In this document: in pieces, positions 33,600-62,611 of the stretch
How the letters are laid out: each line of letters starts with the position of its first letter
Numbering within the stretch: position 1 is the stretch's first letter
From: Convolutriloba macropyga
Lineage: Eukaryota
Direction of reading: 5' to 3'
DNA: 64,000 bases
NCBI RefSeq assembly: GCF_964194025.1
Contig: NC_134472.1
Location: 66,464,001 to 66,528,000 of the forward strand
Position numbers and translations under genes: made by a program
Notes under the pieces: generated by a model
Seen by the model: only the letters and a program-made list of their open reading frames with translations
Told to the model about the DNA's origin: nothing
The model's database searches: none

Positions 33600-34740
33600 A
33601 ATAATATAGCCGACAGATTACCAAAATAGCTGCAGAATAGGCTTTGGTTTTAGTCGCGATGTTTTGTTAGTGAAAACATTCACTGTAAAGGATTCCTGTG
33701 GTTAACCTTAGAAAGTTAACAATAACCTTAAGTCAACTCAACATTGGTCTTAAAAGTAACTCAAGAGGTCGAGGTAAGTCAGTTATGGTTTTTTTAACAA
33801 AAAATTTATCACGCAATTTAGCTATGCTGATGAGGGTAACAATTAACGTCATGCACATAAAAGCAGTTGGAGCGCCATGAAAAGATGAAAAAATTGCTGT
33901 TATTAGCTTTGCAGCGTGAAGAAAATAAGCGTCTGACGACGAAACAAAAAACATAGCAGGACAAGTCCTGAAATACAATTCAAAGAATTTTAATTGACTA
34001 AACACAAGACCTAGAACGGACTATGAGTGAATTGGGAAAACCATTTCTAAAGATATCAGATAGAAAAAAAACAAAAAACAGAAAATAAATGACAAAATGC
34101 CGCTAGCGAGAAAAAACCACTAGCGAGAAAGCGAACTTTTGTTCAAACACCGTTTTCTCACTCTACTTAAAAATTAGAGCGAACAAATTTGACGCCGCAA
34201 AACCACTCGCGCCACTTCCTGTTTCGGCGTGACCAAAATCACTGCTAAAATTTGACTTTAAAAAACATAAAAATGTGTGAACAGATCTTAAAAAAAAGAC
34301 AGCGCCCCAATACAATTCAAACTCTTTGAATTGTAAAAAATAGCACGGCATGTCCTGAACTAAAATTCAAAGAATTGTCATCGGCTAAGAAATAACCAGA
34401 ACAAGAAAAGGTAATAAACGGATTTGGAAAAACGATAAAAACTCAAAACGGAGTGACATCAAACCGCCTCACGTGAAAAAAAACCTACTATCGAGAAAGA
34501 AAAATCCACTTTCTGTTCAAATAGGTTTCTGACGTTCAAATAGGTTTCTGAAAGTAAGCCAATTTCAGTTCCAATAGGTTTCTGAAATCAGGGGAAAGAT
34601 TTTACGCCGTAAAATCGTTCGCATTTTTGCTCCACTTCCTGTTCCACCGTGACCATATTCACCAATTATGAAAATGTGGGAACATTTTACGAAATCAGCG
34701 CCTCACTACAATTCAAGTCTTTTCGAGTTGCAAAAAACTA
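33600..34740 (-). mobile_element. Partial, rearranged copies of the family B repeat
   Basis: Blocks such as AAAAACATAGCAGGACAAGTCCTG...CAATTCAAAGAATTTT and TTCAAACACCGTTTTCTCACTCTACTT are shared with 57940-58360, 60660-61080 and 63000-63370. Confidence 0.6.
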
Positions 34741-37700
34741 AGATCACCGCAATACAGCATTGCTCTAAAATATGAATTTTGAAATAGATGCTTCAACAAT
34801 CAAATTCTACAACAGACATCTGCAGTAGCAAAGATAATAACTTAACGTCAGAGGAATTAAAGGGCTTGATTCTTTCATATTGTTTTTAACGAGACCAATT
34901 TTGGCCCAGATTTCATTTAACCTTTAGTATCAGAACTTCCACCAAATGAGTTCAGCTGCTTAAACTTGAGTTAGAGAACAGCTTAGATCACCAGAATGTC
35001 AAGGGCGTAAAAATCAATTGAAAATTCAAAACTGTAGAGCAAACAAATAGTAAAAAAGACACGACTAAAGGAACTGCTTCACGCTTCATTCGAGAGAAAT
35101 TAAAAATACCATCGGCAATGATCAGATCACAACTTATATAGACCACAATGACATGTGTACGATAATAATTTGATTTTATAGGCTTTATCTCTACTAAGCT
35201 TGGGGGTCTATATTGTGAATGAACCCAGCCTGTAGATGCTGCCATCTGGAAGCCGTAAACAACAACAAAATTATATTGTTTCAAAGACGGATAAAGTCTA
35301 TCAAAACAACTTGGTGCCGGTTTTGATTGGCTTTTGCGAATGAAACGAATGAACTACTAATGGCATTGAAATACTCTAGTGACCAGTTGCTGACCCGTTG
35401 GATGCCCATAATATGACCACAGGCCAATCATCTCCAAGACTCTGGCTTTTAAGTAGCAACTTTTATTCCTTGAAAACATGCAGCTTTATACGGATGCTGC
35501 GCTATAAATATCAACAGACATTTGAAGCAAATCACTATCAGCCGGCTACTGTTGGTGTCGGTAACCTTTAGCAACAAAACTGTTCCCAATTAACATTTTA
35601 ATTAAATAATTTGTACAAATTATTGATTGCAATATGCAAAACAAGTTATATATCAAGTCAACAGATCAAACACTCATCAGCAACTTTTAAGAGTAGGTTT
35701 GTGTTACATAAAATCATTCAGCACCTTCAGATAGCGATGGCTAGGATGCACTTATTGATTCCCAAACTATTCAAGTTCGAGAAAAAAGCTTCTCAAAACA
35801 ATCGGCTTAAAAAAGTGGATCTATTCTGCAACCTCGAACTGCATTTATGACTTCCGTAATAAATTGAGTACTACCATATGCCAGGTTAAAGCCTAAAAGT
35901 AGCAGATGCGTTTTGAGAGCCTAAATTTTTGATGCCAACATATATAGCTGTGGGCTGAAACGAGTCCAGGTTGAGGTCCCTGTTCAAGACGTATTGATTC
36001 CCATTGATTCCCATAACCCCGATTGTCATTGAAAAATCAGAAAAAAAAATGCAAAATTGATAGTCTTACAAACAATAATTCAGAATTGCGTTCTACTTTG
36101 ATCGAACTTTTCGCAGTTAGGGAAGTTCCAGTTTCTTCATGAAAGGATACAGGACTAGTATCATTAGCAATAAGCATTAGGCATGGTAACAAAGTTTACC
36201 TTTGTTACCAGGCCTACAAACAACTTTCTGAAGAGCACTTTAAAACTTTCAGCGTGACAGAAACGGTCGCATTTCGCATTAAAGAACTGTGCATATCGTT
36301 TCTTTTGCTCAATGACAAGCCTCTGTACATAAGGCACAATAAACAACAATAAAATGGCATTCGCAACAAAAAGCAAAAACTCGCAAAAGCACAAAAATTT
36401 TAATTCGGTACGAAAAACATACTTCAGTATATAAAGAATAAAAAATTTGATTGTATCCTCTTAGCAACGATAGAATATTTTTAAGTACGTAATTGAATAA
36501 AAATATTATACAGGGATGCGCCCAAAAACAAGAATTTTTTAAAAAAGTTTAATTTATGCAATCCAGAAAATTATACGCTGTACATAAGCATGTCATATTG
36601 ACCTCATAAACAACTATAAATTTAAAAAAGAACCAAAAGTTGAGAAAAAAATATCTCAAAATTGATTTCTCAAATTTCACATGAAATTATTTGTACAAAA
36701 TTTTATTCAGTTCTTAATAACAAATGATCGCCTGCCAATTCACGTAACACTAAATGCAGTAAAACAAGGTAAAAAACCCAAAATAGCGAAGAAACCTCCA
36801 AAAATGTGTAAAAACGTTTAGATTAGCGTAAAACATCCACTAATTACAAAAAGGCATCAGGACGTCAAAATAAGCTGAATAAGATTACTTTAATGTACAA
36901 TAACTTTTTAGACAGCATAAACGCTCTGATGAAAAAGGAACAGGTTCAAAAGGCTGCACATTAACAAAATTAACTGACAACTTACCGAAATTTCTTCACA
37001 CGTAATTTCTCGCTCTATTCCAAAGGCTAAAAGAAACTCTTTACAGTTTGCTCGCTCTGTTCAGCGAAACAACTTTTACAAACTTTATTTACTCCCTGAA
37101 CTTCCGGTTTTTTTCTGCGCACTTAAAGAAAAACAGAGGCGGAGAACTCCGGAACCGACTCCAAGTGAAAATTCACTTAAACTGAAGGTAAACTGCTAGT
37201 TAAACGAAATCAAGTAATCAATCGTTTCATGAAAAAAACTATCTCGCCGTCTGTTGCAACAGACGGCTAGATACAGTTAACTTTTCCTTCAAGAAATGAC
37301 TTTTTAAAAAACCGAATGAATCAATGAAAACAAAACAGCTTCAAAAATTTGCAAAAAAATTGCTTCAAAAAGCGTCTACACCAAAATAATATAAATAGCT
37401 CCAAAATACGACACCAAAATAACATAAACTCCAAAATAACATTACTAAAATTCCATCAAAGAGTCCAAAACAATTACTTGCAACAGACAGTGAGATACAG
37501 ATGGTTTTTGCTCAAAAAACAATTTCCAAAAATAGATATAAACAATAAAAATGATACATGTGCGAAGCGAGGAAAAGTAGAAAGAACCAGCAACTAAAAA
37601 CATTAAATTTTGTTAACCATATTCCCTATTAATTGCTTCGTCCCAATAGTTGTTCAATAGAGAAACCTAAACAATGTTTCTGTTCAGTCAGTGACCACCT

Positions 37701-38003
37701 AACAACCAACACACAAACTTTACAAATAAAGCAAAAACGCGAAAAAAGTGAGAAAAATCGTTTTATTTGTTACGGTAAGAACTGGCCTATCAAATATTAC
37801 AATGTATCCTCGTAGTAAGAAAACCCGCATAAATGTTGTTAATAAAGAGTTCCGCGCGACACATTATTCCAGAAAAGCATAAAAACGGAAAAGGCCATAT
37901 TTATATTAGAGTAATTTGAAATAACTTATTTAAAATGCCCGAAAAACTGTCAACAATTCTATACTACTTTGTCAACCGACATCACAATCTTAATTTTCCT
38001 TGG

Positions 38004-38319
38004 AGTCATGTCGTTAGACCTTGAACAAACTTTTGATTATCGATTGGAATTTAACAAACTTGTGAAATAACTCAATATTGACTTAAAGTTTTAATATTTG
38101 TTTAACAAGCCTCATCATCACTCGAGAAAATTGTTTCTTTATAATCAGTTGAATTAAAGCATTGGAAAATTTACTTATAATAGATTTAACAGTAGATTGA
38201 AGAAGATTGTCGCCCAGCTCTGAAGATCCGCTCGAAGATGCTGAAACCTGAATAAAATGTTTTAAGGGGTGCAAAAACACATAAGCATGCACCAATATTA
38301 TTTTATTAAATACGTTAGT
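38004..38319 (+). repeat. 5' LTR (316 bp)
   Basis: AGTCATGTCG...TACGTTAGT. Differs from the 3' LTR by 9 substitutions and 3 small indels (manual count). AATAAA at 38251-38256. Confidence 0.96.
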
Positions 38320-38337: not shown

Positions 38338-38853
38338 AGACAATCTCATCTTCACGAACTTGATTGTGAATTATTGATGACATGGAGCTGTTTTCCATCC
38401 GAAGCACATAGACGAAGAAGAGCTGAAAAACAAATCGCCGGCAGAACCTGTTCGACAAGTCAGCACTTAGAAGACAACTTAAGCTACTATCCCGCTCATC
38501 AAACAAAAGACGAAATCACACAATTTTCTGCACATCATTAATGCCTCAGGGTCACTTCTTCAAGGGTTCGTTAAAACTTTCAAATTTTCTGCAGTAAATT
38601 TTAAAATGCCTTATATTTGATGAACGCTCAATCAAACAATCATTATGAATTTGATATCAATTTTAACTGAAATCATTTTGAATGGAGCGCAATGAATGAT
38701 GAATTTTATATTGAAGTCTTAGATCTTTGCTCATTTTCTAGTTCATCTTATCATCAATTGCAACTTAACGTTTTTAGAGTTAATCACTCGTAACTGCAAA
38801 AATCCTTACGTAAATTTTATCTGAACCTCCTTCAAAAATTCTAAAACTTAAGA

Positions 38854-40036
38854 ATGGCACAACCGAACATTAGTCTCAAAGCTTATGGCGGAACTGAGAA
38901 AGAAAGTTTTCATGAGTTTGAGAGACTTCTAAGAAGCATTATAGGCGTCGCAGCCATTGACGCAGGACAGCAAGCCAACTTCTTATATTTACATTTGAAA
39001 GAAGCAGCACTTAGATATTTTCAGACTTTAGATGCAGCAACGAGAGCAGATTTAGACTTAAGCTTAACAGCACTGAGGAATCATTTTTGTAATCCTCAAT
39101 TACAAGAATTACATGTCATTAAGCTTGAAAGCATCAAGTTTGATACTAAAACTGACACACCTGAGAATTTCTTAGTTATCTTGGAAAATATCGCGCTGAG
39201 AGCGTATCCGGATCCAACACCAGCTGTTGTTCCTCTAGCCAATCCAGCACTTGATGCAGATGATGAGAGAGATCGAGTAGAAGCAGCGAATGCCGAGAAT
39301 GCACAAAACTTACTTTTTGCACAAAGAGAACGTGAGCATCAAATTAAGCGCTACTTCAAAAAATGTATGCCGAGTTGACTCAGAGCCAAGTTGCTAGAAC
39401 AACCTGAAACTACAACTGTTGAAGAATTATGTCTATTAGCTCGAAAACAGCTAACTATTCACAATCTCTGTAAAATTGACGATAATGGAGGGAGTTTTCA
39501 GCGAAATGAGTAGCACCATTTCTGAAAACCTAGTTACAGCACTCTCAAAGCTAACACAAACTCAGGAGTCGATGGAAAACAAAGCAAATGCCCTAACAAA
39601 GCAGTTTGAGGAGCAGATACAAGTAAGAGAGCAACAGAGTTCAGGTTCAGGTAGCTCATATAATAACAGAGGTTCAAGAGGTAGATACAGAGGAAATTGA
39701 GGTTATAGAGGAAGATATAACTATCGAGGTAAAAATAATAGAGGACAAGGAAGCTATAATTATCAGAATAACTACCCCACACAACAGTTTGTCCCAGCAC
39801 AGTTCCAGAGTGACGAAAACAGTCAAAACTATAACGCGCAGGCTGAAACACAACCCTCCATACAAATTACTCCACCCGAACCTCAAAACCATATTGTTAC
39901 AACACAGTATGCACAGGTGTTTTGCTATAAGTGTGGTTATCCTAATCATCTTGCCAGTCAATGTTCACTAGGAAGAGGAGGTAGACGTCGAGGCGGAAGT
40001 AATTTCCCATTTCAAAAAGCGCCAAAAAACTATTAA
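38854..40036 (+). pseudogene. gag: gag (disrupted) with RG-rich region and CCHC zinc knuckle
   Basis: ATG at 38854; premature TGA at 39376 and 39698; frameshift near 39475; CYKCGYPNHLASQC (CX2CX4HX4C) at 39923-39964; stop TAA at 40034-40036. Confidence 0.9.
40024..40030 (+). promoter_or_regulatory. -1 ribosomal frameshift slippery heptamer A AAA AAC (gag-pol)
   Basis: In gag phase, just before the gag stop. The -1 frame is open from here into the protease ORF. Confidence 0.8.
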
Positions 40037-43000
40037 AGCCACAAGTTCCGCAAAAGTCCAATTATCATTGTAATAGCTTAGAAAATTCATTTTTAGAATC
40101 TAGAAAAAATTTCATTAATGAACAATTAACTGTAGAAGAAAATCAAGGTGAAGACGCTGAATTTTGCGCAGTTATACCTCTCGAAGGAGATGTCTTGAGT
40201 TACATTAAGTTAGATTTTGGCAAAAATTACAAAAGAAGAGCTCTCATTGATACTGGCTCTTGCGCAAATGCGATTCCTAAAAGTCTGTTAGATGATCTTG
40301 AAAACAAGCAGATAAAAGTTGAATTTGAAAATCCTGATTACACAGTTGTTAAACTTGCCTCAGGGGCAGCAGTTAGAGTGAACCAACAAGCTAAAATAGA
40401 GTTTAGTTTAGGAGATCATCATTTCAATGATTCATTCATTATTTTGCCAAAAATGAATAAAATTATACTGGGCAACTCCTTTTTTCGAAAGCACTCTATT
40501 GATATAAACCCGTCAAACAATCTGATTAAATTGCCCAACATGACGTATCATCTAAATGAAATAAAGCCGAAAAACAAACCCCGGAAAATTTTGAAAAAAC
40601 TGAAAAAATTATCTGTTTTTGCAAATAAAAAACAAGTTTTGAAAGCAAAAACACAGTCAATAATTGAGTGCTACATTCCTGATCAAAATGACCTAAGCCT
40701 TACTAACTGTAGTGGTGTAGTTATTCCTAACAAAAAGTTTGAAGAGAGAACAGAAATAGTTCTCTCATCATCATTGAGTACAGTTGACGAAACAAGAAAA
40801 ATTTATATTTCAGCCGTTAACCCTACGGATCATCAAATCATTGTTTCATACAATACAATAATAGCCAGTTTTGAAATTCTCAACCCAACTCAAGCTGAAA
40901 AACTGATTCAAATTGATCCGCAGCTTTTAGCTCTTGCGAAAATGAGAGATCATGAAAACATAGAAGCTGAACTAAATCAATTGATTCAGGATAAAAATTT
41001 CAATCAATCGAATGAACGTCCAAAACCAGAATACGAAAAACTATGGTTTCCAACTCCTGAAACCTGTCCTAACCCTGAAATGTTGTCCCCACTTGAACGT
41101 GAAATTTTTGATCAAATCCAAAATTTTCAAATGTTAGAAAAAATTGATCCTAAAGCAAGCAGTGAATACAGAGCACAATTCCTTCAACAATTCTCCTGGG
41201 AAAACTCCGTCCTTGAAAAGGGCCAAAAATTGCAAGTTGAGGAGTTATTAGTGGAATTTTCTGACATATTTGCGAAACATCGATTTGATGTTGGTTTTAA
41301 CACCGAACTCAAGATAAGGTTGACACCAGAACATGAACTTCCTGTTTACGTCCAAAGTCCACAAACGCCCATTCATTTGCGTGATGAACTTCTCGTTGAA
41401 CTTGATTTAATGCATTATTATAATTTAATAACAACCTTGTCACATTCAAAATACAGTAGTCCAATATTTGCTCAACGAAAGGAATCTGGTAGATTGCGAA
41501 TTTTAATTGACTTAAGGCGTATAAACCATCTATTAAGAAATGATTACATAAATAGTAATTTTCCAATTTCAAATATGAGTGATGCATCAAACCATTTTGC
41601 TTGCAAAACACTGATAAACAAATTTGATTGCTCACAAGCATACCATTGTGTACAAATGGCAGATGATCGCTCAGTTCAATTATTGGCATTTAACTATGCC
41701 TCTCGCACTTATGCCTATAAATGTCTAGCTCAAGGTCTAAGCAAATCAGTGACAGGATTTAGTGCCTTCATTACCCACTATTTAGATCCATGCTTAGCAG
41801 CTAACAATTGTACGCAGTACATGGATGACAAAGGCAGTGCCGTGAAAAACTTCGATGCGCTCATACCAAACCTAAGAAAAATTTTTGAGTGCATAAGGAG
41901 ATCAGGATTGAAACTATCTCCCGGTAAATGCGAAATTGGCACACAAAAAATCAAATTCCTTGGAAAGTACATCACACCCGATGGAGTATCAACTGAAAAT
42001 TCAAAAAAAGAAAAATTCCTTAAAAACTTGAAAATGCCTCAAACAGTCAAACAAGTAAAGCGTCTGGTAGGATTCCTTCAACTTTGGCGTGACTTTATTC
42101 AAACCTAGCTCAAAAACTGATGCCTTTCTACGAATTACTACGAAAAGACCAACAAGAGATGATAACTGAAAGACATGAAAAAAATCTTGAAATTTTGAAA
42201 AATGATTTGGTGAAAGCAACTAGCCTGACATTACGCTTAGCGAAACCTGGTCTACAGTATGTCTTGCTGTGCGATGCAAGCTACTATGGAACTGGTTTTG
42301 TTCTTATGATTGAAGATTACATCAAAACTCAAAACAAACAAAAGAAAAGTTATGCCCCGGTTGCTTTTGGCTCCAGACTATTTAATGCATCACAATTAAA
42401 ATTTTCAGTTTATTATAAGGAGTTTCTTGGACTATATTTTGCTCAAGATCATTTCTCTCATTTTATTTGGGGAACAGAAAAACCAGTTATCGTTCTTACA
42501 GATAACAAAAGCTAAACTCAATTTTTCCAAGCAAAAACTATTCCACCATCGGTTTGGAATTGCTTGGACCGGCTAATGTCATATAACTTGGTAATTGCTC
42601 ATATACCAGGTCGTGCAAACTACGCAGCTGATTTTTTATCACGTATACAAAGTGATCTGTCAACAACCCTGCAGTTAAAATTGACAGATAGAATTGCAGT
42701 ACGTGAGATTGAAATAGAATCAATAGCTAAAACACCGGATGCATCGCTAAGCTCAGTTGACTATATTGACAAATGTTTGATCAGCAAATATCTGCAATTG
42801 ATGAAAACACAATCACCAAATTAAAACAAAGTGGACTCAGCATTGACATTTTAGAACAAATAGAAAATCACAGATATTTGAACAATGCAAACAATGATGA
42901 AGTTCATGGACTAATACGCCTAATAAACAAAACTTGTCAAATAAATGAAAATTTGATGTTAGACCCAAAAGATCATTTGATCGACCTTGTGGAAAGAACC

Positions 43001-45597
43001 GATCATTTAGGTTTAAAAGACGAACAACAAAAGGATGAGACAATAAAAAGAGTAATTTCATGGAAAACTCGGGAACGAGTTGAAGATCTAACCTATGCAT
43101 CGTTTCAACTGAAAAAGTATTGAAAGCAATTTAATAGGTTGGTACTTCAAAACGGAGTTCTTTTCAGAAAATTTTTTGACGACACAGGAAAAATCAAAAC
43201 TCTGCAATTTTGTCTACCAAAACATCTATGGAGAGAAGTAGTTTATAGGCTGCATAATTCAAAGCTAGCAAACATGTGGGCATTGCAAAAACAGTGCAAG
43301 AGTTCAGAAAAAGATTTTACTTTCCCGGCTTCACAGAATATTTGATCACGATGATAAAAAACTGTCTTACATGTATTCAAACAAAAGCAATTTCAAACAG
43401 AGCACTTAGAACTTTTCTCCAGCCAGTTTCATCTCTGCAGTCTTTTCCTGGAGATATGATGCAAATCGATTTCGTGGGACCATTTAAGTCACCAGTTTAC
43501 AAGTACGCGTTAACAGGCATTGATGTGTTTTCTAAATATTTATTTCAAAACCACTAACAAGAGCAAGTGCACAAAAGGTAGCAACTGAATTAGCAACGAT
43601 TTTCTTCACACATAGTTACATTCCACATACGATTGTTTCAGATCTCGGAACAAATTTTGTGTCTGAATTAATGCATGAACTTTGCAAATTGTTAGAAATC
43701 AAGATAAACATGCTACATTAAAACACGCTAAAACAGTAGGGGTTGTGGAAAGATCACATGCAGCACTAAAAAGAATTTTAAAGTTAAACACAGATGAACA
43801 ATGGTCAAACTGGCATCTCAACGTACCATTAGCCACATTTATTCACAACACATATTACTTGTCAATAGGATGCACACCAACTGCTATTTTTCATGGACGA
43901 GAGCCCATCAAACCACTTGACATCCGATTTAATAAAAAAAACATCCAACTAATGGATCCAAAATCCAATTTTGTGACAGAGTTGCAAGATGCCACGCAAA
44001 TATTATTTTCACAAAACAAATGCAAACTAGTGGAAGCTTATCACAAGTTCAGAAAGTACTATGATGAAAAAGCGTACGCAAATCCTTTGCAGGAACACAG
44101 TTACTGTCTTTTACTCAACCCAAAATTTTCTCATCAGTCAGACTTTGGAAGCAAATCAATGCAGATATGGTTACCGTTGTATCGAGTTGAAAGAGGTTTA
44201 ACCAATTGGAACTATCTGATCAGAAAAATCGGCACGAATTTTACACAATGTGTACATAGAGTTCGACTACGAACCTATGAACCAAGCGAACCACCCATTG
44301 ACATTCAGGACGTGAGTGAGGCAAAATTTACACAAGATCCTCGTTTAGGAAAATACAGACAGGAACCCGAACTATTCGACAACAAAATACCAAACTTGTT
44401 GAATCATAACTTCATGGATGAAGCGCATCAATCAGACATATCCCCTATTTCAGAAGACCCAGTTACCGTAACATATCAATTTCCAGTTGCTGCAAGATTG
44501 GCACCGCAACCTAGACCAGCTCCAGTTGCACCTGCAGCAGCCCCAATTGAAATAGAACTTCAGGAACCAATTGAAGTTGTGGAACACCCACAGCCAGTCC
44601 AAAATGACCAAGTACACGAACCAGAGAACATTTTACCCAACGTAGTCTTTCCCTTTATTGAGTTTCCGGAAATTGAAAGGCAGAGACCAAATAGAGACAA
44701 TACAAACAATATGGCATTTAATGACAACGCTAAAGAACAGACAAATATTTTTCCCAATGAAACTAGAGAAAACCGCTCTTACGCCAAGACGTTCTCAAAA
44801 CAAACATGTCCAGTTTAGCCCGACATCTCATATACCTGCTCCTGAAAAACAAACAAGAGCTAAACCTAGACAGTTCGTAACGATAGATGGAAAAATCCTT
44901 ACTCCAATTAACTTAAGCCCAGGAGCTAAGAAAGACAACATTAAAAAATCCTATAGAAGCGACATGGAGAGAACCATTTTTCACCCAGGACCAAGACCAT
45001 CTAGAGCCACTAAAATGGATCAAAAACGAAGTGAAGAAGTTAAAAACACCAGGCAAGATACTGAGAAAGATCAAGCCCAAAGTTCAAGCACAGTAAAACC
45101 AATCGCACAAGTTGTATCTAGATTGAGAGGCAAGAAAGGCGGTGTTAATACAATAGAAAATCAAAAGCTTAGAGTTTTCTTTAGCCAGTCTAGCATCTCC
45201 AGTTTTGAGAACTCAATAGTACAATTGTTCGATAATCACGTTAAGGATTTGAGCTTTGAAAAACTTGGAATCCTAATAAGTGAGAAAGAGAGAGAGAGAG
45301 AGAGAATTAATTAGGAAAACTGACATGCCCAACGGTACAGTTGTATCAATTTGGGACTCAATTCGCAATCGTTATATCTACATTTTCAATGTAGATACTC
45401 TTGAATCGAGACCAATTTACCAGTCTATTAGGATGTGTTTCGATAACCTGAAAAAAGTAGTAGAGAAAAACAATGATGAAGTTATAGCAATCCCAAAATC
45501 AGAAATAAACTCAAAAGAATTTAGTTGGCCTACTCTGCTTAGAGTAGTAGTTAATGTTTTTTACCTCAGCAAATTGGATCTAATTTTCTTCGTTTAA
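40030..45597 (+). pseudogene. pol: pol (protease, RT, RNase H, integrase, C-terminal extension and macrodomain), disrupted
   Basis: ALIDTGS (DTG at 40249-40257); RT motifs SKYSSPIF, LRILIDLRRIN and YMDD (41818-41829); RNase H LCDAS; integrase HHCC plus QIDFVGP, IDVFSKY, IVSDLGTNF and VERSH. Split over several ORFs by stops and frameshifts. Confidence 0.93.
45160..45597 (+). pseudogene. TARG1/OARD1-like macrodomain at the Pol C-terminus
   Basis: GTVVSIWDSIRNRYIYIFNVDTLESRPIYQSIRMCFDNLKKVVEKNNDEVIAIPKSEINSKEFSWPTLLRVVVNVFYLSKLDLIFFV follows the OARD1 pattern GEVAVL..DGRYIYYLITK.....KPTYENLQKSLEAMK.HC.KNGV..LSMPRIGCGLDRLQWENV...IEEVF....I.I.VY (from memory). Frameshift in an (AG)n tract at 45287-45305. 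Confidence 0.7.
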
Positions 45598-46466: not shown

Positions 46467-47083
46467 TTACGGACCACTTACCGGTTGTTTCATATTACGT
46501 TCCTTACAATCACCATCAATAGCAATTACACTCGTCATCGGGTTCCATACATTATTTTTCCTCTTCTCTTGAATTTTCATACCGACTGATAGAAGTGAAG
46601 CACAGCCATTATATAACTTCACCGTTATAACGCAATGTAACCAGCCGTATAGCAGGTATACTGTGTCACCCACACACATTGCCGACAGTAAAAAATCTTG
46701 CCGTCATAACGTTCTAAGCATTCCATGAAAGTGCTCGCCCGAACGAATTTTCTTTCAAGCACTCCAAATTCAGCAGATGGTGGGAAGAAAAACCAGTGTT
46801 TTTCACCCGAACCGTACAAAGTGATCAAACAATCAGTAGCCTCCATGAAGTCGCTATGCCATCTCGTAAAGTTCGGCTTATCGACAGTCAATAAGTACCC
46901 TCTGGACAGCGTTGAAATCTCAGAACCATTGGGAATAGTGTACCTCAAAAAATCAGGTTTTGTTATTTCGTCAAATGAAAATAAACCCATATAAACATTT
47001 GCACCGGAGTCAGTTAGTCGTTTTCCAGAAACCATGAACCGGTTTTCAAAGTTTTCGATTTTTACTAACCGATCAATGCAGCG
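46467..47083 (-). pseudogene. JmjC-domain (Fe(II)/2-oxoglutarate dioxygenase) cargo gene, antisense within the LTR element; one 2-nt frameshift
   Basis: ORFs 47035-46625 and 46679-46467 join when one dinucleotide is removed from the (CA)4 tract at 46671-46678. The result is YLLTVDKPNFTRWHSDF...GSGEKHWFFFPPS...FYCRQCVGDTVYLLYGWLHCVIT, with the HxD...H triad and the 2OG-binding Thr and Lys present. Confidence 0.85.
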
Positions 47084-47583
47084 CTAAAACAAATTTTTTT
47101 ACAAAAACAAATTTTTCTACAAGGAAATGTAGGTCTGATGATTTTTAAAAGACAACAGTTAACATGATTATCAAAAACGTGAATTGAGAAACTATCACCT
47201 AATGATTTTTGTCCTTGTATTGAACAGCTTTGCAACCAGCGACCAACGCAGGAACGGTTCTTTCAATATCATGCACTGAACCGTAACTAGTGACAGCTTT
47301 GGTGAGAGAAGCAGCATTATCGCAAATGGTTAATAGAACATCGGAATTTTGATTAGATCGCGTTGATCTCTTCACACTTTTCTCTGGAAAAATCGAAACC
47401 TCTTGTTAATAATTTTTTAGAAAAATCATTGAACTTTAGATTGAGCGTCCATCAAGACCTAGTAGAAACAAAATTAAAGAGTACAAAAGTCAATTAGCCT
47501 TAAAAAGTGGAAGAGCAAAACACTAAAACAACTCTACAAGTTTAAAGAAGTTCTACAAGTTCAAAGTCCAAGTTCACTTAAAA

Positions 47584-47868
47584 CTAGTATCCTAGCTCAG
47601 TCAGTTTGTAGACTGCAAAAATGAAGCAGAATTGAATCTGCTTACAGCAGCAACAAACGCTGAGGAGTACAACAATTAGTCCCAGCCAATTGAAGTCGTC
47701 CTCAGCTGGCCCACATACAATAGGTCGAGCCTCCGACCACACCCTTCGTCCATTGAATTCGTAATAAGTGGCATTAACACAGCAGTTGAGAACATGGCCA
47801 CGCCAAATCACACTTGTGCAACAATAGGCAGCACTCACAAAAGCAAGAAGCAAAACAATTTTCAACAT
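47584..47868 (-). CDS. Small Cys-rich predicted type I membrane protein (94 aa), antisense cargo of the LTR element
   Basis: Intact ATG-to-stop ORF: signal peptide MLKIVLLLAFVSAAYC, Cys-containing ectodomain with N-glycosylation sequon NAT, hydrophobic segment WLGLIVVLLSV followed by CCCC. It lies just downstream of a TATA+Inr. Confidence 0.65.
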   Translation of the reverse strand: MLKIVLLLAFVSAAYCCTSVIWRGHVLNCCVNATYYEFNGRRVWSEARPIVCGPAEDDFNWLGLIVVLLSVCCCCKQIQFCFIFAVYKLTELGY

Positions 47869-50617: not shown

Positions 50618-50629
50618 AAAGGAGGGGAG
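50618..50629 (+). promoter_or_regulatory. Polypurine tract AAAGGAGGGGAG
   Basis: Abuts the 3' LTR start at 50630. Confidence 0.9.
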
Positions 50630-50946
50630 AGTCATGTCGTTAGACCTTGAACAAACTTTTGATTATCGATTGGAATTTAACAAATTTGTGAAATAACTCA
50701 ATATTGACTTCTAAAGTTCTAATATTTGTTTAATAAGCCTCATCATCACTCGAGAAAATTGTTTCTTTATAATCAATTGAATTAAAGCATTGGAAAACTT
50801 ACTTATAATAGATTTAACAGTAGATTGAAGAAGATTGTCGCCCAGCTCTGAAGATCCGCTCGAAGCTCCTGAAACCTTAATAAAATGTTTTAAGGGGTGC
50901 AAAAACACAAGCATGCAACAATATTAATTTTATTAAATACGTTAGT
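50630..50946 (+). repeat. 3' LTR (317 bp)
   Basis: Direct repeat of 38004-38319, followed by the TSD CTTGG. Confidence 0.96.
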
Positions 50947-51803
50947 CTTGGCGAGATCTAACTTTGTTGCGAGTAACGATTCATTCTCCAGTACCAACAT
51001 CTGCAGCAAACGATTCGGCGGATAAGATGACATCGCGTTCAAAATGCTTTACAAAATTCAAAAAGCAAGCTAATAAAGATTATAATGTTTGGAAACTAAA
51101 TTTATTTTTCAGAATCTGACTGTTTTCTCGAGGAGTTCTAGTTGATTGTTTTTTATGATACTCCAGTTTTGGTTCTGAATTTTTGGATGATGCACCCTGT
51201 TCAGTTCTCCCAGCTGTTGAGATTAGATAAAACTTGTCATGTTTATAATTGAAATTGAACGACTTAGTTCGGATAACTAAACTCAGCTTGCGGGCTGACT
51301 CTTTGTCTCCTTTATTCCCAAATTTTTTGTCAAGGTCCAAAAAATTGACGCAAGATCTGAAGGGAAGACACAATTTCTTCTCTTAAATCAGCTGCTAAAA
51401 TTCTTCTTAAGTTAGCAGCTTACATTCAGAATGAGAGATATTTAGATAACGCAAAAATCAAGAAGTCAAGCGTGCTAAAAAGTCACTAGAAGAGTCAGAC
51501 GAACAAATCCCTAAAGGACCAATAGGACTAATACAATGGCTGCAAACGTAGTTTGAGAGCAATAATTAATCAGTTTATAACGAGATATTTCATGAAACAG
51601 GAAATAAGCACTTTGTAATCTTCCAAGTCACAAAATATCAAAACATATGATGTATTTTCTGTTTCAGTTTAGTTCGAATGTGGTCTTTAGTTCACTTGAT
51701 CTTAGTTACAATAGCTAATATATATCTTCTTCGCAAATTCTATTTTGATATGATAAGCAATGTCACACATCGTTAAATGATCAGTTTATATCCGAAATAA
51801 TGC

Positions 51804-53879
51804 TCAAACATCACTGATTCCCGTATCGTCGGTTCCCGATTGTGCCGACGAATGGGCCCTGTTCCTCAATTTCAAATTCTTGCTCAGGTTCGAGTTAAAA
51901 TCCGGGTTTCTAATGTAAGCCGGGGTCTTTTTCTTAATAACTAAATCCGGGTTGTCCATCATTTCACAGAGCAAAGTCTGGTGATCTTGTTCCAGAGGGG
52001 CTATGCTAATGTCTCGTGTTGCTCTGAATTCTCCACAGTTGTTCAAATGTTCGTTTTCAAGTCGGAAATAATTCCAAAAGAACCTCCGAAAAACGGTCAA
52101 AATCGCCCGAATTGTGCTCAAGTATAAACCATCCATAAATGGTGCCAGAAAGTTGACAACCTTAGGTACCCACGAAAATCTTAAAATGAAGTCCTGAACT
52201 ATAGCGAAGTAGTAGAAGGCCCGATTTGGGTAAACCATTTCGTCCCGTAGACAGGGCGCATCTTTATTACAGCTGAACAAACCCCAATCGTGTTTTATAT
52301 CCCAATATAAGGAATAAATACTGGAACATGTTTTAACAACAGAGTAAGAACATATCCAAGCTATGCTATAATACCCATACTGCTCCTTATATATTTTAAT
52401 ACCGCCATAAAGGCCGTAAGCTACCATACGTATGGCATATTTTCCCGAGTTTGCGATGTGTGGAAAACATTTCTTAGTTGAGTGGTACCTTCGAAGACAT
52501 TGAGCGAACCGGAACCATGCAGGAAGCATGCTGACTACAACACGCAACCCATACGAATATCTTGCGCACATTTCGTTCTCATAATTCCCAGAATATCCAT
52601 CACTTTTCCAATCCAGTTCGAAAGCGTAAAAACAAATGAAAAACTCAAAATCCATGAACACTTTGTTCAAACTGTTTAACTGGTCAGCGAGCCAGAAGTC
52701 AGGGAAAGTTACGAAGAAATAGGGAGCGGCAAAAACCCGAAATAGGTACTTAATAAACCAAAATCGGGCATTCTTTTTAAACACTGGGAGTGGCAAAAAC
52801 AATAGAAGCAGAAATAAACAAACACAAATTAAAGGACTAATATATGCTTTCATCCCTATAACTGGTGAAAACAAGAAGAACAAAATACTTATACACCACA
52901 AAGTGCCCAGAGCGAACGCAACCTCTAATAAATCAGGATACGATATATGTTTTCTAGGATCAATGCCAAAAATCAAAACATGATTAACTCCATATTTACT
53001 CCACCCGTAAACATTCGCTCCCAATAAACCAACAAATAACACAACCAAAAACAATCCTCGGTAAATCGTTACGTAAGCATGCAAATGAATTTTGTGATAT
53101 TTTAACAATTGCACTGCTGACAAAATGATTGCAACAAAAAGTGTGACGAAAATGCCCAAAAACAGCCCGACCAGGAATGTTTTCTTTGGCGCTTGTTTCT
53201 CGGTAAGCGGCGGAACGCGTAATCTCTTCATGGCGCGGGTTCGATCCCCGCCCTCTAACTCTTGTATATAAGTTTCTTCACAATCTCGGATGAGCAAATC
53301 AATTTGCTTATTTGTACCGAACGGCGCTTTTTCAACTTCGCGAGCACGAAAATCGGCTCCACTTGCAGAGTCGCAAATTTTATCATGTTTCTTTAAAATT
53401 TTTCGAAATGCCGTTGAATTCAAACTTTGATAATTTTGAAGCAGAACCAGGCTCAAGTAAAACTCGCTGAATGCGACTTTTAAGTCTGATATTTTGGGTC
53501 GCGTGTCTTTAGCTATCCCCGGCTGCAACTTTGTACTCAAATTTCGAGTCGAATTTTTCTTTTTCACCTCGCTGTTGTTTCGATCATGTTGCTGCTTAGC
53601 CATTCGCAACTCGGCCTGTAAAGTTGCACTTTTTCTATGAGCCTCCGCCAACTTTTCGGTAAAAAACATGTTGACTTTATTCAATTCTAGCTGGCATCTT
53701 GCAAAGAACTTCTGATCAAACTTGGCGTAATATTTTTTAATTGTTTCTTCATCCGAAATATCAGCCGGTGGTGAATTTTCTTGGGCCGAGTAAAGAAGAT
53801 CTTTCAAGTCTTCATAAGCAACATACTGAGTTCTCCACTCAGGTGTTATGTGGGCATTCAAATGGGCAGCAAACTTCAT
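51804..53879 (-). CDS. XPR1: XPR1/SYG1 SPX-EXS phosphate exporter (691 aa, intronless CDS)
   Basis: MKFAAHLNAHITPEWRTQYVAYEDLK (SPX), LLQNYQSLNSTAFRKILKKHDK, AMKRLRVPPL, GVNHVLIF, DFWLADQLNSL, RFAQCLRRY, RRFFWNYFRLENEHLNNCGEFRA. Confidence 0.97.
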   Translation of the reverse strand: MKFAAHLNAHITPEWRTQYVAYEDLKDLLYSAQENSPPADISDEETIKKYYAKFDQKFFARCQLELNKVNMFFTEKLAEAHRKSATLQAELRMAKQQHDRNNSEVKKKNSTRNLSTKLQPGIAKDTRPKISDLKVAFSEFYLSLVLLQNYQSLNSTAFRKILKKHDKICDSASGADFRAREVEKAPFGTNKQIDLLIRDCEETYIQELEGGDRTRAMKRLRVPPLTEKQAPKKTFLVGLFLGIFVTLFVAIILSAVQLLKYHKIHLHAYVTIYRGLFLVVLFVGLLGANVYGWSKYGVNHVLIFGIDPRKHISYPDLLEVAFALGTLWCISILFFLFSPVIGMKAYISPLICVCLFLLLLFLPLPVFKKNARFWFIKYLFRVFAAPYFFVTFPDFWLADQLNSLNKVFMDFEFFICFYAFELDWKSDGYSGNYENEMCARYSYGLRVVVSMLPAWFRFAQCLRRYHSTKKCFPHIANSGKYAIRMVAYGLYGGIKIYKEQYGYYSIAWICSYSVVKTCSSIYSLYWDIKHDWGLFSCNKDAPCLRDEMVYPNRAFYYFAIVQDFILRFSWVPKVVNFLAPFMDGLYLSTIRAILTVFRRFFWNYFRLENEHLNNCGEFRATRDISIAPLEQDHQTLLCEMMDNPDLVIKKKTPAYIRNPDFNSNLSKNLKLRNRAHSSAQSGTDDTGISDV

Positions 53880-54984
53880 GTCACAATCTTAAAGAATCAA
53901 TAACGTCGTTTCACAAAATCTAGTCTCAATTTTCAAAGAAGTTATTGGGTAATCGGACAGTGATCTGAATAACTCCGATCTTTCTATTAAACAAAAAGGC
54001 AATAAAGGGAGGATTGAACACCGTTTCCGATGTTGTTAGGGTCAGAAAATTGGTCTTTAAACATCTGTCAAGTGATAGACATTTTGCAACGGCGTTGCTG
54101 AAGCAAGCTTCCAAAATATTTTGTTAAACAGTTCAAAGATAATAGAACAAATATACTTCACCCGAGCATATTTACTTTTCATCGATACTTTTGACCTTTA
54201 GCTGACTCAAAAGAGGATAGCTTCCGATTTATTGAAGAATTTAGAAGCAAAGATTGATCTTGGTTTTCCAACAGGCAAGCAGCCCTCAACAGCCACCTCA
54301 AATTGACTTGAAATGACGCACATCGACATAGCATCAATGCAACTCAAAACATAAGCTTCTAAACTGAGACGAAGTGCTCTTGAAATTGAATTTCCAGTCT
54401 CAATTGTACGTCGAGTGACCGGGGGGAGCTTTTGCATGGGATAAGTATATTGTGAGGTTTCAAATGACGTCATCAGAGGTTACACAACTATAATGAAAGT
54501 GAGAAAAGAAACCAATTTCGACGCATTTTTCAACTGATTTTAGTAGTACACAATCCCCAATTAATTTGAACTGCTTAAAATTGTGAAATAGAAACCAATT
54601 TAGATTTTACAAAACGCAAAAAAAACTCAAAAGACACAGGTCACTTGATAAGTCAAAACCCGTTTAAGCAATTTTTTGCATTAAAAAACACAGAGCTACA
54701 ATAATTGCATCAAAGCGCTCTTTTTGCGTCGTTTACAACAAAAATGCTGGCTTCTAAAGCATACTTAAAAAGTTTTAATGCCTAATCAATGAGACACACT
54801 TTTCGAAATCCTTCCTTTCGTTCAAAATAAGTTTGTCAATAAATTGAAGTTCATAAAACAAAAAAAAACAGTTCGTGGTATTCTACATTGCTTTCTCTAA
54901 GCACAAGAAAAACATAATCGACTAAACGTCGGAAGAATTGCTCTCGAACGACTAGTGCGAGCTCTAATCATTTCAATTTTGTAT

Positions 54985-55888
54985 TCAATTGCCGCCAATT
55001 GAGTGCAGCTGCTTAAAGTTGTGATTGAGAGAGAATTTTAGATCACTTGAAACGCAAAAAGTCAAGGGCGTAAAAGTCACTCGAAAAGTCAAAACGGTCA
55101 AGCAAAAAAATTTGGCATAAAAAAGACACGCTTACAATAATTGCTTTGAACTTCGTTCGAGAGCAATTGATATGCTGCAGTGATATTTGCTACAATTGCT
55201 CGCCAGGAAATTTTATTTGTCACCTGCTAATGTTGCTCCCCTCATTTTCACGTGACGTAACCCTAACTAAAGAGCTAATAATCCTTTATAATCTGGATAT
55301 TTATTTCTTTATTTCTTTAGTTTCAAGGCCATATTTGGTTCATATTTAAATCTAAGACCATAGCCCTTATTTTGTAGATAAATGTCCCAGCCCCAATTTG
55401 ACAGGGGTTGAAAGATAAAATTCAATTTTTCTCACTGAAACAGAAGCTTGCAGTTAAAATTGATAGCCTAAATACCGCAATATTGTACAATAATTATTTC
55501 TGATCGTGCTATTTATTTCTCATTAAAATTAAAGGCATGGCGAAACTGCTAACAGTAGGAGTCTTGAATAGAGTTTTTTGAAAAGAAAGCTAATATTTTA
55601 CCAATTAATGCAACTATTGATTACCATTCTGAGCAAATTAAAAAGAGTTTACTACTATTTATTTTGAGCGGTTTTTTACATCTCTTGGTTCCACCACAAA
55701 AGACTCGTTTTAACAAGTTTTGTAATTTTCATAGCAGTTAACCTTGCGAAGCCCCAAATAATTGCTTATTTTGTTTGAGAACAATTAAAAGAAAAAGACA
55801 AGATGATTAGGAAACACTGACGAATTGCTCATACACGACGGCGACAGTCAGCTTAAGATTCCAGCATTTTTAATTAAACGATGGAGAT

Positions 55889-55926
<38 letters not shown>

Positions 55927-55960
55927 AGATTTGAGCCTTTCTCATGTTCTCATCTCCAGT
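54985..55960 (+). repeat. Dispersed repeat family C
   Basis: Blocks GCCGCCA(A/C)TTGAGT.CAGCTGCT, GTCAAGGGCGTAAAAGTC.CTCGA.AAGTCAAAACGGTCAAGCAAAAA and ACACGACGGC.AC.GT.AGCTTAAGATT...G-tract TAGATTTGAGC recur at about 59790-60175. Fragments occur near 34950-35010 and 51400-51590. Confidence 0.6.
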
Positions 55961-58900
55961 AGCAGACACAAAAAATAGAGATGAATGAGATATCCTTGGG
56001 CAACTATTGATTACAATTCTGAGTAAATTTAAAAAATTTTAAATACTTTATTTTGAGCGTTTTTTATCTCCTCTTGGTTTACCTTGCGAACAGTTAACCT
56101 TGCGAAGTTCTAGAATACGAGCAAGTGAGACGTGTCTAACCGAAGCATCTCAAAGTTAACGACTTCCTACTTCCGACTACCTTCCCCTTGTGCAATTATC
56201 AGTGATCAAAAGAAAGAACTATCAAACTCATCAAAATTTGAATCATTGCTTTCATTTAGAAAACCGGACAACCTTTCATTTTTGGACGCTCCGCGTAAAA
56301 TGTTCCATATCATACCAAATAGCTTAAAAAGCTGTATTGTTTGCGGCTAAGCTTGCCAAAAATAGAAGTGCTTCCTTACAACTCAGAAAATCAAAAAATC
56401 TCTCACTTCGTTCTATTGAAGCGTAATGTTGAACTATTCATTTTTCTAGTCAACAAAGTTGTCCAGTAAATTTTTCGACCAAATAAGATTTTGATCAGAA
56501 AGAAACTTTGGTATTTCACGGCTTGGAAATGGGAAGAAATCCCAGAACATCAAACTTCATCCCAGTGTCAAACTCATCCATCAAACGGTGGTTGACAGAG
56601 CATTTTACTCAGCAAAATCAACTCAGCAAGTTCAACTTTGACTAAATTAAAATGATTTGAATTCATTTTGAACAAACTGAATTAACGCCGAGTTTCTCGG
56701 AAACTATGTTAGTTGAGAAACTTCTTTTGGAGCTTTTTTCTGCTATTTTATTTGTTAATTCATGATCTGTAATTGAATAAATTCATATTGAGGGTCAATT
56801 TATTCCGAAAATTCAATTTCAAAAGAAAGCGCTCCCTGATCTTGAAATGCAATTGTGTGAAAATTGAAAGCTTGTAGTCTATTCAGGTTGCCCAAAAGAT
56901 CTTTACACGAGTTCTCAATAATTGGTTTAGACCAGTTACGTGCGATTAAAAAATTTCCTTAAAAAACCACCAGTTTTCTCGCGTAAAATAACCTCATCAA
57001 ACAGTAGGGCCTTATAGCAGTTCCCGTTCATCGACCTTCACTGATTAGCTCACTTCCAATTGAGGCTAGAAATACGACAATTGCGCTGCATGCTCGTTGT
57101 TCCGCGTCAGAACTATTCAAGAGCATATCAACTGATTCCATTCATGCACACCAATTGAACTTATCAAAAAAATTTGTTTCTTTGTTTTTGTTTCTTTCAA
57201 AAGTATATTATCCATAGTACTTAAGGCTTATACAAACTGATAAATTTTCACAAACCTGTACTGCATTTATTAGGAGTTGAAATAGTGGCAAAGGACGCTT
57301 GGATTTTTTCCACTTACCGTAAACCACAGAGGAACGGAGAGTAAACCTCGGAACAGTGTTCTTGCCAAGTATTCAAAATCTTATGCGACGCGTCCTCTCA
57401 ACGATTAGAAATTGGCGTATTGAACGACGTTTGTGAACAAACAGTTGCAACGGATTTTGCGATGTCGAAATCAAGAACAACTAAGAAAGACACTAGAAAC
57501 TACCCAAAGGTTAGTTCTATTAATCAAATGTAGACCTATAAACCTCCCTATAATCTCAATATAAATCCCGCTCTCCTCTCCCTATAAATGCCACAATTTC
57601 TGCTACACAACAAGAAAGACTGCAGCTAATGGAACCAAAGACGCGCATATGAAATCTTTACCTATATTAATGAACATGATAAGTTATCGTTAAAACTATG
57701 TCGGTGTAATTTTATTTCTCGAAAAAATTTCTTTCGCCCTTACCGAGCAATTGCCATTTCTGCAACTTACAAGGGAAACGCTACGCTGCTTCTGCAACTG
57801 AAATTTTTGAAAAATATCAAACAAGTAAAAGTTAAGCTAGGAAAAGTTAACCAACCGAAACATTTTTTTCAATGTCTGAAATTGCCTTGTCGAAAAACTT
57901 TTCAAGGTGATTATAAGCTATGGAGAAAAAATAAAAAAAACACTTCCGGACAAGTCCTGGCCTACAGTTCAAAGAATTTTCATTGACCATACAAAAAAAC
58001 TAGACCTAGAATAGACTATGACTGGATTGGGAAAACCATTTAGAATATTGTATAAAAAAATTGACAGTAAAAATCAAAGCGAAAATGCCGCATGCAAACA
58101 AAAAAAACCACTAGCCAAAAAGTGGATTTTTGTTCATACACCGTTTTCTCGCTCTACTTAAAAATTAGAATGAAAAAAGTTCACGCCGCAAAAGCACTCA
58201 CCTTTTCGCTCCATTTCCTCTTTGGACGTGACCAAAATGATCACTCCAATTTGACTTCAAAAATCATGAAACTGTGTGAAGAGATCATTAAAAAAAGACA
58301 GCGAACATCAAATGTGTGAACAACAAAGATTCAAAAAATTCTTTTAATTGTAAAAAAAACTTTTAGTTTCTTCTTACATCGAAACCGATACAGTGAATTC
58401 CAAAAACTTCGCAAAAAAGTTTTTTTAACACCTTGAGAGAAAAAATGCTCCAACACACCCAACGTTGTTTCTGAAATGTATTAAAAACATACTGTAAACT
58501 ATTTCCGAAGAATTTCATTAAAGCTGGAAAAATCGCGAGAATTAGTGTCGCGTGAGAGCGCAGATAGACTCCTTTCAAATCAACCAATCAAAGCTATGGT
58601 ATTCCGGTGTACCGAGGGGCTCCGAGGAAAACTACGAAAACTCAGTCAGTATACATTCTAGAGATAAGAGTCGGCAAGAAACAGGCTTAAAAACTATTAT
58701 AAAGCAAAAAACAGTGGCATCACAAACCCAAAATATCGATGCCGCATAGAAGTTTTTGCACTTCTTTCAAACAATATACCCGAGGTTAGAAAAAGTAACG
58801 TCCAGAGCTCGATAACACTAAAATATAAATTCAAAAATTCAACCATTACCTGCAAAGCATAGTACAATTTGACAGCTCACTGAGTCAATATGTTTAGAGT

Positions 58901-60210
58901 TCACCTAGAAACGCACGTTAAAGATCGCCAAGCTGCTCTCGTTTGCTAATTGTTTTAAAGTACTAATTGTATTAAAATTATAAACGAATCGCCATTAATC
59001 AGCTAGAGGAAACACTCCACAGAGAAATTAATTTAAAATATTGCAAAAAAATAGGTTGCCTCAGTTTTGTGTCGAATGTTTGCTTTTAAAGCCAAGTCCT
59101 ACAATTTGATATGGTTTCTTGAGCTATGTCAAGCTCCCGGAGACCATTATTTTATTCATTTTGATTTCTAGGGTTCGAAATAGAAGTAATGGTGTACAAC
59201 AATGGTGTACTACAGGCAAGAATTGAACCCGCAATTTTTAACACAACTAAGAGCAGCACAGCGAAAATTATGTTTAATATGTAGAATGAAACGGTTTATT
59301 GTAGAAAGTCGGGAAAAACAAAAAAAAATTATGATCTCTAGTGGTGCAAATGAGAACTTGTACTGAATAAATCTGAACAAAATAAAATATGTAAGTTGGA
59401 AAAATATGGAGTTGAATGGCTACAGATCATATACAAGGACAATAAAATTGCTGTAAGCGGCTCAAAAATAGTGCTTTTAGAGGTTATTTTAGACTACTAC
59501 TGAGATTTAAAGCAAAAATAGTAACAAATATTGGCAAACTTTGTAACTTGACACCAACCCCGTTCAACTGCTTTAAACTTTCAGAAGACGCAAATATCGA
59601 TTACGACTAGTGAGAGCTGGAATCTATTGCAGCGTATTTCAGTTGGGGAGGGGGGTAACTAAATTCACGAAGGGGCCTTCCAATGACGTTACTTGAGGTT
59701 ATTATTTATCACTATAATCACTAATAAAATTTAAAAAGAAAAAAATTACAAACTTTTGCGCACTTTTTATTTGACTTTTAGCAGTGAACTGCCGCCACTT
59801 GAGTTCAGCTGCTGACACGTGTGAAAGAGAAAGAGATTTAGATCACACAAAATGAAAGCGTCAAGGGCGTAAAAGTCGCTCGAGAAGTCAAAACGGTCAA
59901 GCAAAAATTTGGTATAAAAAACAGACGCCTTTACAATAATTGTTTCACACTTCGTTCAAGAGCAATTGAGAAGAGCACCATATTCCACATAATTGAATCA
60001 AACTTTGCTGGAGAGCAATTAAAAGAAACAGGATTAACACGAAACGCAGCCTGCTGACGTTTTACCAATTGCTCGCACACGACGGCAACGGTAAGCTTAA
60101 GATTATGCCTCTTTAATTAAACTGAGAGGAGGGGGGTAGATTTGAGCATCTCGAGTTCCGACATCCATTAGCAGTAGGCCTAGTAAAATTGAGAATTTGA
60201 AAATGCAAAC

Positions 60211-61143: not shown

Positions 61144-61466
61144 AATAATATAGTTATCAAAAAACAACTGAACTGATTTCCAAAATTGATTCCTTGGTTT
61201 CGAAAAAAAACAAGAACAGGACAAATAGTCAACGTCGCAAACTTGCTCTCTAACTAATGGTTGCTCATATGTAGTCTTTGACAGTAGCTAGCCCAAATTG
61301 GCTTTGGTCCCACCCTAATCAGGCTTTGTAAACCATTGTTACTGCTAATAAGCGCAGTCGTTTGTTCACATATGGTTATCAAAACCTAAATTTTCTTTCC
61401 AGGGGTATAATAACACGCACACAGTTCTCGAAACCCTTTCAAAAAAGATTTGACGATATATATTTC

Positions 61467-62567: not shown

Positions 62568-62611
62568 AACTTCTGCAATTATAGAATAATTAGTAAATAT
62601 GCAAACTGATT

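Follow-up and report, generated by a model that had tools for sequence, protein, structure and literature searches.

An antisense JmjC oxygenase gene between pol and env of Ty3/gypsy retrotransposons: a candidate counter-silencing factor

The window analysed here is a stretch of 64,000 nucleotides from Convolutriloba macropyga (contig NC_134472.1, positions 66,464,001 to 66,528,000 of the forward strand), and it holds a dead copy of an env-bearing Ty3/gypsy retrotransposon in which a JmjC domain gene lies on the antisense strand between pol and env. Genes of this kind recur at the same place in other elements of the genome, their catalytic residues are conserved, purifying selection acts on them, and in related lineages the pol-env slot is refilled by other genes. 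At a probability of roughly 0.45, our preferred explanation is that the gene encodes an accessory counter-silencing enzyme, selected on the element, that would erase repressive histone marks.

Under this explanation, a second transcription unit would run antisense between pol and env, encoding a small membrane-type protein together with a stand-alone JmjC enzyme made after splicing, a dioxygenase of about 260 residues. The enzyme would be retained by selection on the element and not on the host. Acting in the nucleus on chromatin at integrated copies, it would strip off repressive methyl-lysine (H3K9-, H3K27- or H4K20-type) by oxidation, and removal of the marks would benefit the element by keeping these copies transcribed.

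The JmjC gene and its element in the window

The antisense gene comprises the following features, in its own 5' to 3' order (ORF, open reading frame):

47584..47868, minus strand: small ORF of 94 aa with a hydrophobic N-terminus, a CC motif and a C-terminal membrane-like stretch
47384..47392, minus strand: pyrimidine tract and AG resembling a 3' splice site, a putative acceptor 8 nt ahead of the start position
47199..47375, minus strand: JmjC exon 1, about 59 codons; lacks its start codon and ends in an in-frame stop
47084..47198, minus strand: phase-0 GT-AG intron of 115 nt, position kept across families, splicing predicted from sequence
46467..47083, minus strand: JmjC exon 2, encoding the double-stranded beta-helix core (HxD...K...H) followed by a basic tail; frame interrupted near 46678-46671

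By its motifs and modelled fold, the window feature is a JmjC 2-oxoglutarate/Fe(II) oxygenase domain with predicted activity. The catalytic codons lie where the original prediction had placed them (His 46858-46856, Asp 46852-46850 and His 46637-46635, minus strand), and a Lys codon is found at 46801-46799 on the same strand. The dinucleotide slip that it had proposed is confirmed in a TG run near 46678-46671, and it puts the last third of the domain in another frame; this break joins the lost start codon and the exon 1 stop as defects of the window copy. In an alignment of 12 rows, H76, D78 and K95 are invariant and H149 is present in 11; the metal triad and the lysine are the best-kept columns, down to 27% identity and in distant relatives, and they align with those of PHF8.

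The broken window frame alone gives no Pfam match. Open sibling copies match Cupin_8 (E 2.6e-5) and JmjC (E 2.3e-3), both below the curated cut-off; exon 2 alone reaches 18.8 bits for JmjC (cut-off 24) and 24.7 for Cupin_8 (cut-off 27.4), and the JmjC cut-off is passed by 4 of 12 distant relatives. A 12-row profile matches PHF8, PHF2 and KDM7A at 7e-8 to 2e-7. The predicted model is a JmjC-type double-stranded beta-helix, for which the same three proteins come first in profile and fold searches, the KDM7/PHF and KDM2 group makes up the top fold rows (structure-alignment identity 12-20%), and sequence matches among solved structures belong to the KDM7 group only. The JmjC assignment therefore stands, as open siblings, profile and fold all agree on it. 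The proposed motif likeness to KDM2/KDM7 is upheld, these being the closest cellular sequences; JMJD6, which had been named beside them, is not singled out.

Beyond the core, genes of the window type (class 1) end about 55 residues past the last His, and the model shows one helix and a disordered tail where a JHD would be. No CXXC or F-box domain is joined to the class-1 JmjC in the exon 1 and exon 2 frames. In a second class of JmjC genes, described below, a helical region aligns with KDM2A and ceKDM7A, with no Pfam match there.

The original prediction had read a decayed N-terminal part upstream of the core. One piece of it, DIERTVPALVAGC, is indeed coding and constitutes exon 1 (47375-47199), not a decayed two-frame N-terminus; the other, LGDSFSIHVFDN, had been mistaken for protein and represents the donor site and first bases of the intron (47198-47084). 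Across families, exon 1 of about 46-62 codons is followed by a phase-0 intron of 76-115 nt. AG precedes exon 2 at 19 of 20 loci, a script finds an in-frame GTRAGT donor at 12 of the 20, and in-frame GT donors are visible in the window and in four further loci (L050, L041, L051, L053). Independent support for the exon joint comes from unbroken distant proteins (P0054, P0060, P0045, P0048), which carry the exon-1 motif typical of the distant families (REP-x-I-x-Y type) at the same spacing before the core.

A pyrimidine-AG site stands 5-9 nt ahead of the start position at 14 of 15 loci, and an acceptor-like site also precedes the small ORF, the class-2 ORFs and two host genes (L081, L083). As an observation on the host animal, pyrimidine-AG before the ATG of these two genes and of the element ORFs hints at leader trans-splicing. 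The small ORF, which has no Pfam match or family match, is kept in class-1 families and in L162, which has no JmjC gene, and is possibly a membrane accessory protein. We infer that it forms one bicistronic antisense unit with the JmjC gene, resolved by alternative or trans-splicing. By the established logic of retrotransposition, an antisense intron is not removed from genomic RNA and thus survives; it would never be spliced from the genome-length transcript and would be recopied in every round. The intron, the small ORF for a membrane-type protein and the exchange of the slot among enzyme genes all go beyond the original prediction, and the intron illustrates both how a retroelement can keep a spliced gene and why ORF-based annotation misses one.

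The surrounding element has these features (LTR, long terminal repeat; RT, reverse transcriptase):

37999..38003: 5' target-site duplication, 5 bp, same as 50947-50951
38004..38319, plus strand: 5' LTR, 95.6% alike to the 3' LTR over 320 columns, then a TGG-starting primer-binding-like site
38845..40036, plus strand: gag, broken, with CCHC zinc knuckle (Pfam zf-CCHC; ORFs)
40003..45279, plus strand: pol with protease, RT, RNase H and integrase, with stops and frameshifts (Pfam Asp_protease_2, RVT_1, RT_RNaseH)
45280..45597, plus strand: Macro-domain-like C-terminal tail of pol, recognised via the tail of sibling L002
48019..50060, plus strand: env, frameshifted near 48860, 3' end approximate (ORFs)
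50618..50629, plus strand: polypurine tract
50630..50946, plus strand: 3' LTR
50947..50951: 3' target-site duplication

With LTRs, target-site duplication, gag and protease-RT-RNase H-integrase all present, this is an env-bearing Ty3/gypsy element of 12.9 kb. The LTR pair and the 5-bp duplication bear out the claim that the JmjC gene lies antisense between pol and env within a bounded element. Pol and env are both interrupted, so the window copy is dead. Siblings with an open pol have rve and Integrase_H2C2, and the integrase core of the window copy matches them. A Pfam search of the pol tail (45280-45597) gives no direct match; the link to Macro comes from the L002 tail, whose alignment with the Pfam Macro domain in the pol of L152 has an E of 5e-9. 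The env-like ORF of about 780 aa is conserved, with a signal-like start, a basic cleavage site, a hydrophobic peptide and a membrane anchor; sibling frames are open at 746-789 aa. It has no Pfam match, and we take the basic cleavage site with its fusion-peptide-like stretch to suggest an env of F type.

Distribution, selection and the exchangeable slot

Within the same genome, a DNA search with the JmjC gene gave 10 matches. A protein search in which 120 candidates were scored gave 101, and at least 14 of these are nearly full length with no stop. Eighteen places were sampled, picked to span 100% to 27% identity. At all 18 the gene runs opposite to the same kind of env, and at 16 it lies between integrase and env, the other two being rearranged remains. 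Every class-1 place examined is within an element, and one intron position is kept. The LTR pairs at 14 class-1 places are mostly 97.3-100% alike (10 places; one at 93.8%, three without a pair), which indicates that several carrier families moved recently. These data support the view that the gene is a lasting component of the elements and not a one-off insertion confined to the window copy, an alternative that the original prediction had itself raised. Tandem JmjC arrays with a period of 1.06-1.34 kb occur at C2:27097985-27109893, C11:25440912-25459589 and C15:20722229-20728801, and they are decayed duplications of element remains.

The ratio of nonsynonymous to synonymous substitution rates (dN/dS) was obtained from NG86 counts on naturally open frames. 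For exon 2 it is 0.073 and 0.086 between families B and C and 0.107 between A and B; in the B-C comparison, env gives 0.057, integrase 0.051 and RT 0.093. Exon 1 reaches 0.28 between B and C and the small antisense ORF 0.22, and silent sites are saturated in more distant family pairs. The sense frames across exon 2 contain 4-17 stops each in all eight copies checked. Changes within families are few, mostly replacements, and look neutral (ratios 0.15-1.45, small counts). Replicating lineages are under purifying selection, followed by decay after insertion, and neutral evolution does not account for between-family values of 0.07-0.11, which are similar to those of pol and env. Of the three outcomes by which the original prediction would have been refuted (no JmjC profile match, presence in this copy alone, neutral evolution across copies), none came about.

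This pattern bears on the proposal that the gene is a passenger of captured host origin, or one that serves the host. The existence of close relatives that thrive without a JmjC gene speaks for it, as do the tandem arrays at three places. However, purifying selection is seen between element families and not within them (over 134 codons, the window copy and L002 show 5 silent and 10 replacement differences), the arrays consist of decayed element sequence and the class-1 places examined are all inside elements, so that this proposal is largely refuted.

A non-catalytic role is also very improbable, whether the protein acts as decoy or ligand for methylated tails or a host demethylase complex, or the ORF is a by-product of antisense transcription that regulates the element at the RNA level. 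For plant elements, it has been suggested that antisense ORFs work via RNA as well as protein (PMC7264820). Some 2-oxoglutarate contacts differ from PHF8, and a motif-poor cupin-like ORF adjoins the class-2 gene in one family. Against such a role, no columns are better kept than those of the triad and lysine, down to 27% identity and in distant relatives, and a dN/dS near 0.08 means selection on the protein.

The origin of the gene was addressed with quick trees of 114-117 columns, in versions of 64 and 39 rows. The KDM2/7 clade has a support of 94-95 without the element JmjCs, which fall on one side of the tree with a support of 45 (64 rows) or 97 (39 rows). Constraining class 1 to group with KDM2/7 gives a tree that the test does not reject (p-AU 0.28). 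Among host genes, a KDM7-like one matches best; it is conventional and has different intron positions. The capture that the original prediction proposed is not borne out for this host, given the separate side of the tree (support 97) and the different introns.

The pol-env slot behaves as a cassette, refilled in related lineages by a second JmjC class or by an OTU-like gene, the latter being a lead only. Between families B and C (L005, L046, L047), silent divergence is 1.6-1.7 in exon 2 versus 0.37-0.47 in pol and env, an excess that hints at cassette exchange even between close families. Two elements (L121 and L122, C15:21455332-21473291; L123 and L124, C2:75378532-75394965), which measure 16-18 kb and have LTR identities of 99.2-99.8%, carry two antisense ORFs in the slot, a 497-aa class-2 JmjC gene and a 252-aa cupin-like ORF with no clear metal triad. 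A third JmjC type, with an HVD motif and probably one intron, lies antisense downstream of env (L115/L116, L117/L118, L119; C3:14852683 and at least six more places). From elsewhere, contig JAAUXW010302280.1 holds BEL/Pao pol fragments with an antisense JmjC-like ORF directly after integrase (L111).

In sisters without a JmjC gene, the slot holds a multi-intron antisense gene with an H2C2-like start (L162:653-1790, L163:403-1630). What we take to be OTU-like Cys and His boxes lie in separate exons; single exons have no Pfam or PDB match, and the Atlas OTU cluster, at 0.85, is a lead only. A Macro-like domain ends pol in the window element, in L152:6214-9999 and in L162:2630-4999, at the position where chromoviruses carry a chromodomain.

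Repeat-borne SUV4-20-like SET genes also occur in this genome. One (L155:901-2556, L151:8717-10000; C5:69761217 onward; SUV420H1 E 1e-16) is followed by an ORF with tyrosine-recombinase-like motifs and is divergent from a class-2 JmjC gene. Of 2103 candidates, 150 were scored and all 150 matched, with many multi-copy open frames of 500-1000 aa, and judging from its sequence this repeat family carries an H4K20 writer. A literature search found no paper on it.

Candidate substrates of the enzyme

The preferred explanation, erasure of repressive histone marks, draws on the nearest relatives, since the KDM7 group acts on methylated H3K9, H3K27 and H4K20. The tails of the JmjC proteins are basic, which we take as favouring it. 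In addition, CpG transitions between copies are just 1.6 times as frequent as other transitions, and this speaks against dense DNA methylation being the main silencer.

Several observations weigh against this explanation. Stand-alone JmjC proteins of about 260 residues, such as JMJD5 and JMJD7, are mostly hydroxylases, and a Pfam search of class 1 (exon 1 and exon 2 frames) detects no PHD, JmjN or JHD. No DNA-binding domain is present to explain how the enzyme would target its own copies. The element JmjCs do not nest in KDM2/7. Fold ranking is tied, with KDM6, JMJD7, JMJD5 and FIH within 1 Z, and the class-2 fold list is topped by JMJD5 (14.9). The PHF8 tyrosine that is presumably a 2-oxoglutarate contact aligns with leucine, and in 4 of 12 rows valine replaces the threonine that precedes the first His. 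Furthermore, 31 of 35 env matches at 65-70% identity have no listed JmjC gene within 4.5 kb, among them one family with ten equal-scoring 788-aa env frames, so the gene is dispensable at the level of the clade.

Some of these points would suit an accessory hydroxylase or demethylase of a non-histone protein, for instance a host defence, PIWI-interacting RNA pathway, splicing or ribosomal protein, or Gag, with chromatin left untouched. The small stand-alone size without reader domains agrees with such a target, and in fold searches JMJD5, JMJD7, FIH and TYW5 score on a par with the demethylases. The slot can hold the OTU-like gene (again a lead only) and pol ends in the Macro-like domain, OTU and Macro being typical viral counter-defence enzymes that act on proteins. 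Nevertheless, the sequence matches among solved structures lie in the KDM7 group only, the best host match is KDM7-like, and class 2 retains the helical region that aligns with KDM2A and ceKDM7A; we regard this option as unlikely. An oxygenase that modifies the genomic RNA of the element or its primer tRNA, comparable with TYW5 and with the AlkB domains of plant RNA viruses, appears quite improbable.

A broader form of the histone explanation is doubtful at present. The slot would be an exchangeable antisense cassette of mark-erasing enzymes, with at least three JmjC classes, an OTU-like protease and Macro on pol; the JmjC genes would form an old mobile-element family common to Ty3/gypsy, BEL/Pao and tyrosine-recombinase elements, and their products would be true histone demethylases that strip heterochromatin. 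If so, together with hundreds of repeat-borne SUV4-20-like writers in the same genome, histone methylation would be a direct battleground between transposons and host.

Neighbouring sequences and comparison with known systems

Beside the element, the minus strand carries an intact, intronless XPR1/SLC53A1 gene at 51807-53888 (SPX and EXS; human protein matched at E 1e-204), whose end is 860 nt away from the 3' LTR. A host KDM5-like gene is intronless too, so this is probably an ordinary host gene. The window further contains a 21-nt tandem repeat (7157-7492), a degenerate array of units of about 65 nt (10019-11532), a 179-nt hairpin-like inverted repeat (31484-31867) and a dispersed repeat that occurs several times, in either orientation (33934-35061 with 54548-63370).

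To our knowledge, clear anti-silencing proteins come from plants, and resistance of animal retrotransposons to chromatin silencing is largely an open matter. Literature searches, with most subscription journals outside their coverage, found no JmjC gene in an LTR retrotransposon. The env-bearing elements described here repeatedly carry, as an accessory under selection, a gene for a chromatin-type enzyme, and at about 260 residues its product would represent a minimal JmjC scaffold. The arms-race idea is testable, as one genome offers open copies, sister families with and without JmjC, and young insertions.

The class-1 JmjC shares with KDM7/PHF (PHF8, PHF2, KDM7A, ceKDM7A) and KDM2 the double-stranded beta-helix, the HxD...H triad and the lysine at the 2-oxoglutarate position. 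In contrast to them, it has no PHD, CXXC or JHD, is about 260 aa long, falls outside their clade and is encoded by a mobile element.

Errantiviruses, the metazoan env-carrying Ty3/gypsy elements, share the gag-pol-env order, LTRs, several near-identical copies and a probable F-type env (PMC13524379), whereas the present elements add an antisense cassette, apparently spliced, between pol and env. In the main text of that paper, the terms jmjc, jumonji, demethylase, oxygenase, macro and antisense are all absent.

Bdelloid LTR elements carry DEDDy nucleases or GDSL esterases as ORF3 in place of env, with no clear departure from neutrality within the genome (PMC5408684). These are likewise extra enzymes downstream of pol, swapped among unrelated retroelements and more closely related among themselves than to host genes (PMC5408684). 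Here, in contrast, env is still present alongside an intron-containing antisense gene for a chromatin-type oxygenase, which is under purifying selection. In plant LTR elements such as Grande, RIRE2 and Retand, separately transcribed antisense ORFs follow pol; unlike the present gene, they have no env next to them and encode no JmjC, and their products are described as lacking clear homologues or a known function (PMC7264820).

A JmjC protein proposed to alter host chromatin is found in the wasp DNA virus LbFV, with proteins of 577-780 aa nested among wasp genes (PMC5381508). It gives a weak fold match to our model (E 4.9e-4), and it belongs to a large double-stranded DNA virus, whereas here a retroelement carries a gene with no traceable donor. 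The functional model for our preferred explanation is VANC of the Arabidopsis VANDAL transposons, which is transposon-encoded and counters epigenetic silencing (PMC5735166, PMC10398659). VANC proteins are not JmjC enzymes; they belong to plant DNA transposons, bind DNA sequence-specifically and target DNA methylation, whereas the antisense gene described here would counter silencing through a JmjC enzyme.
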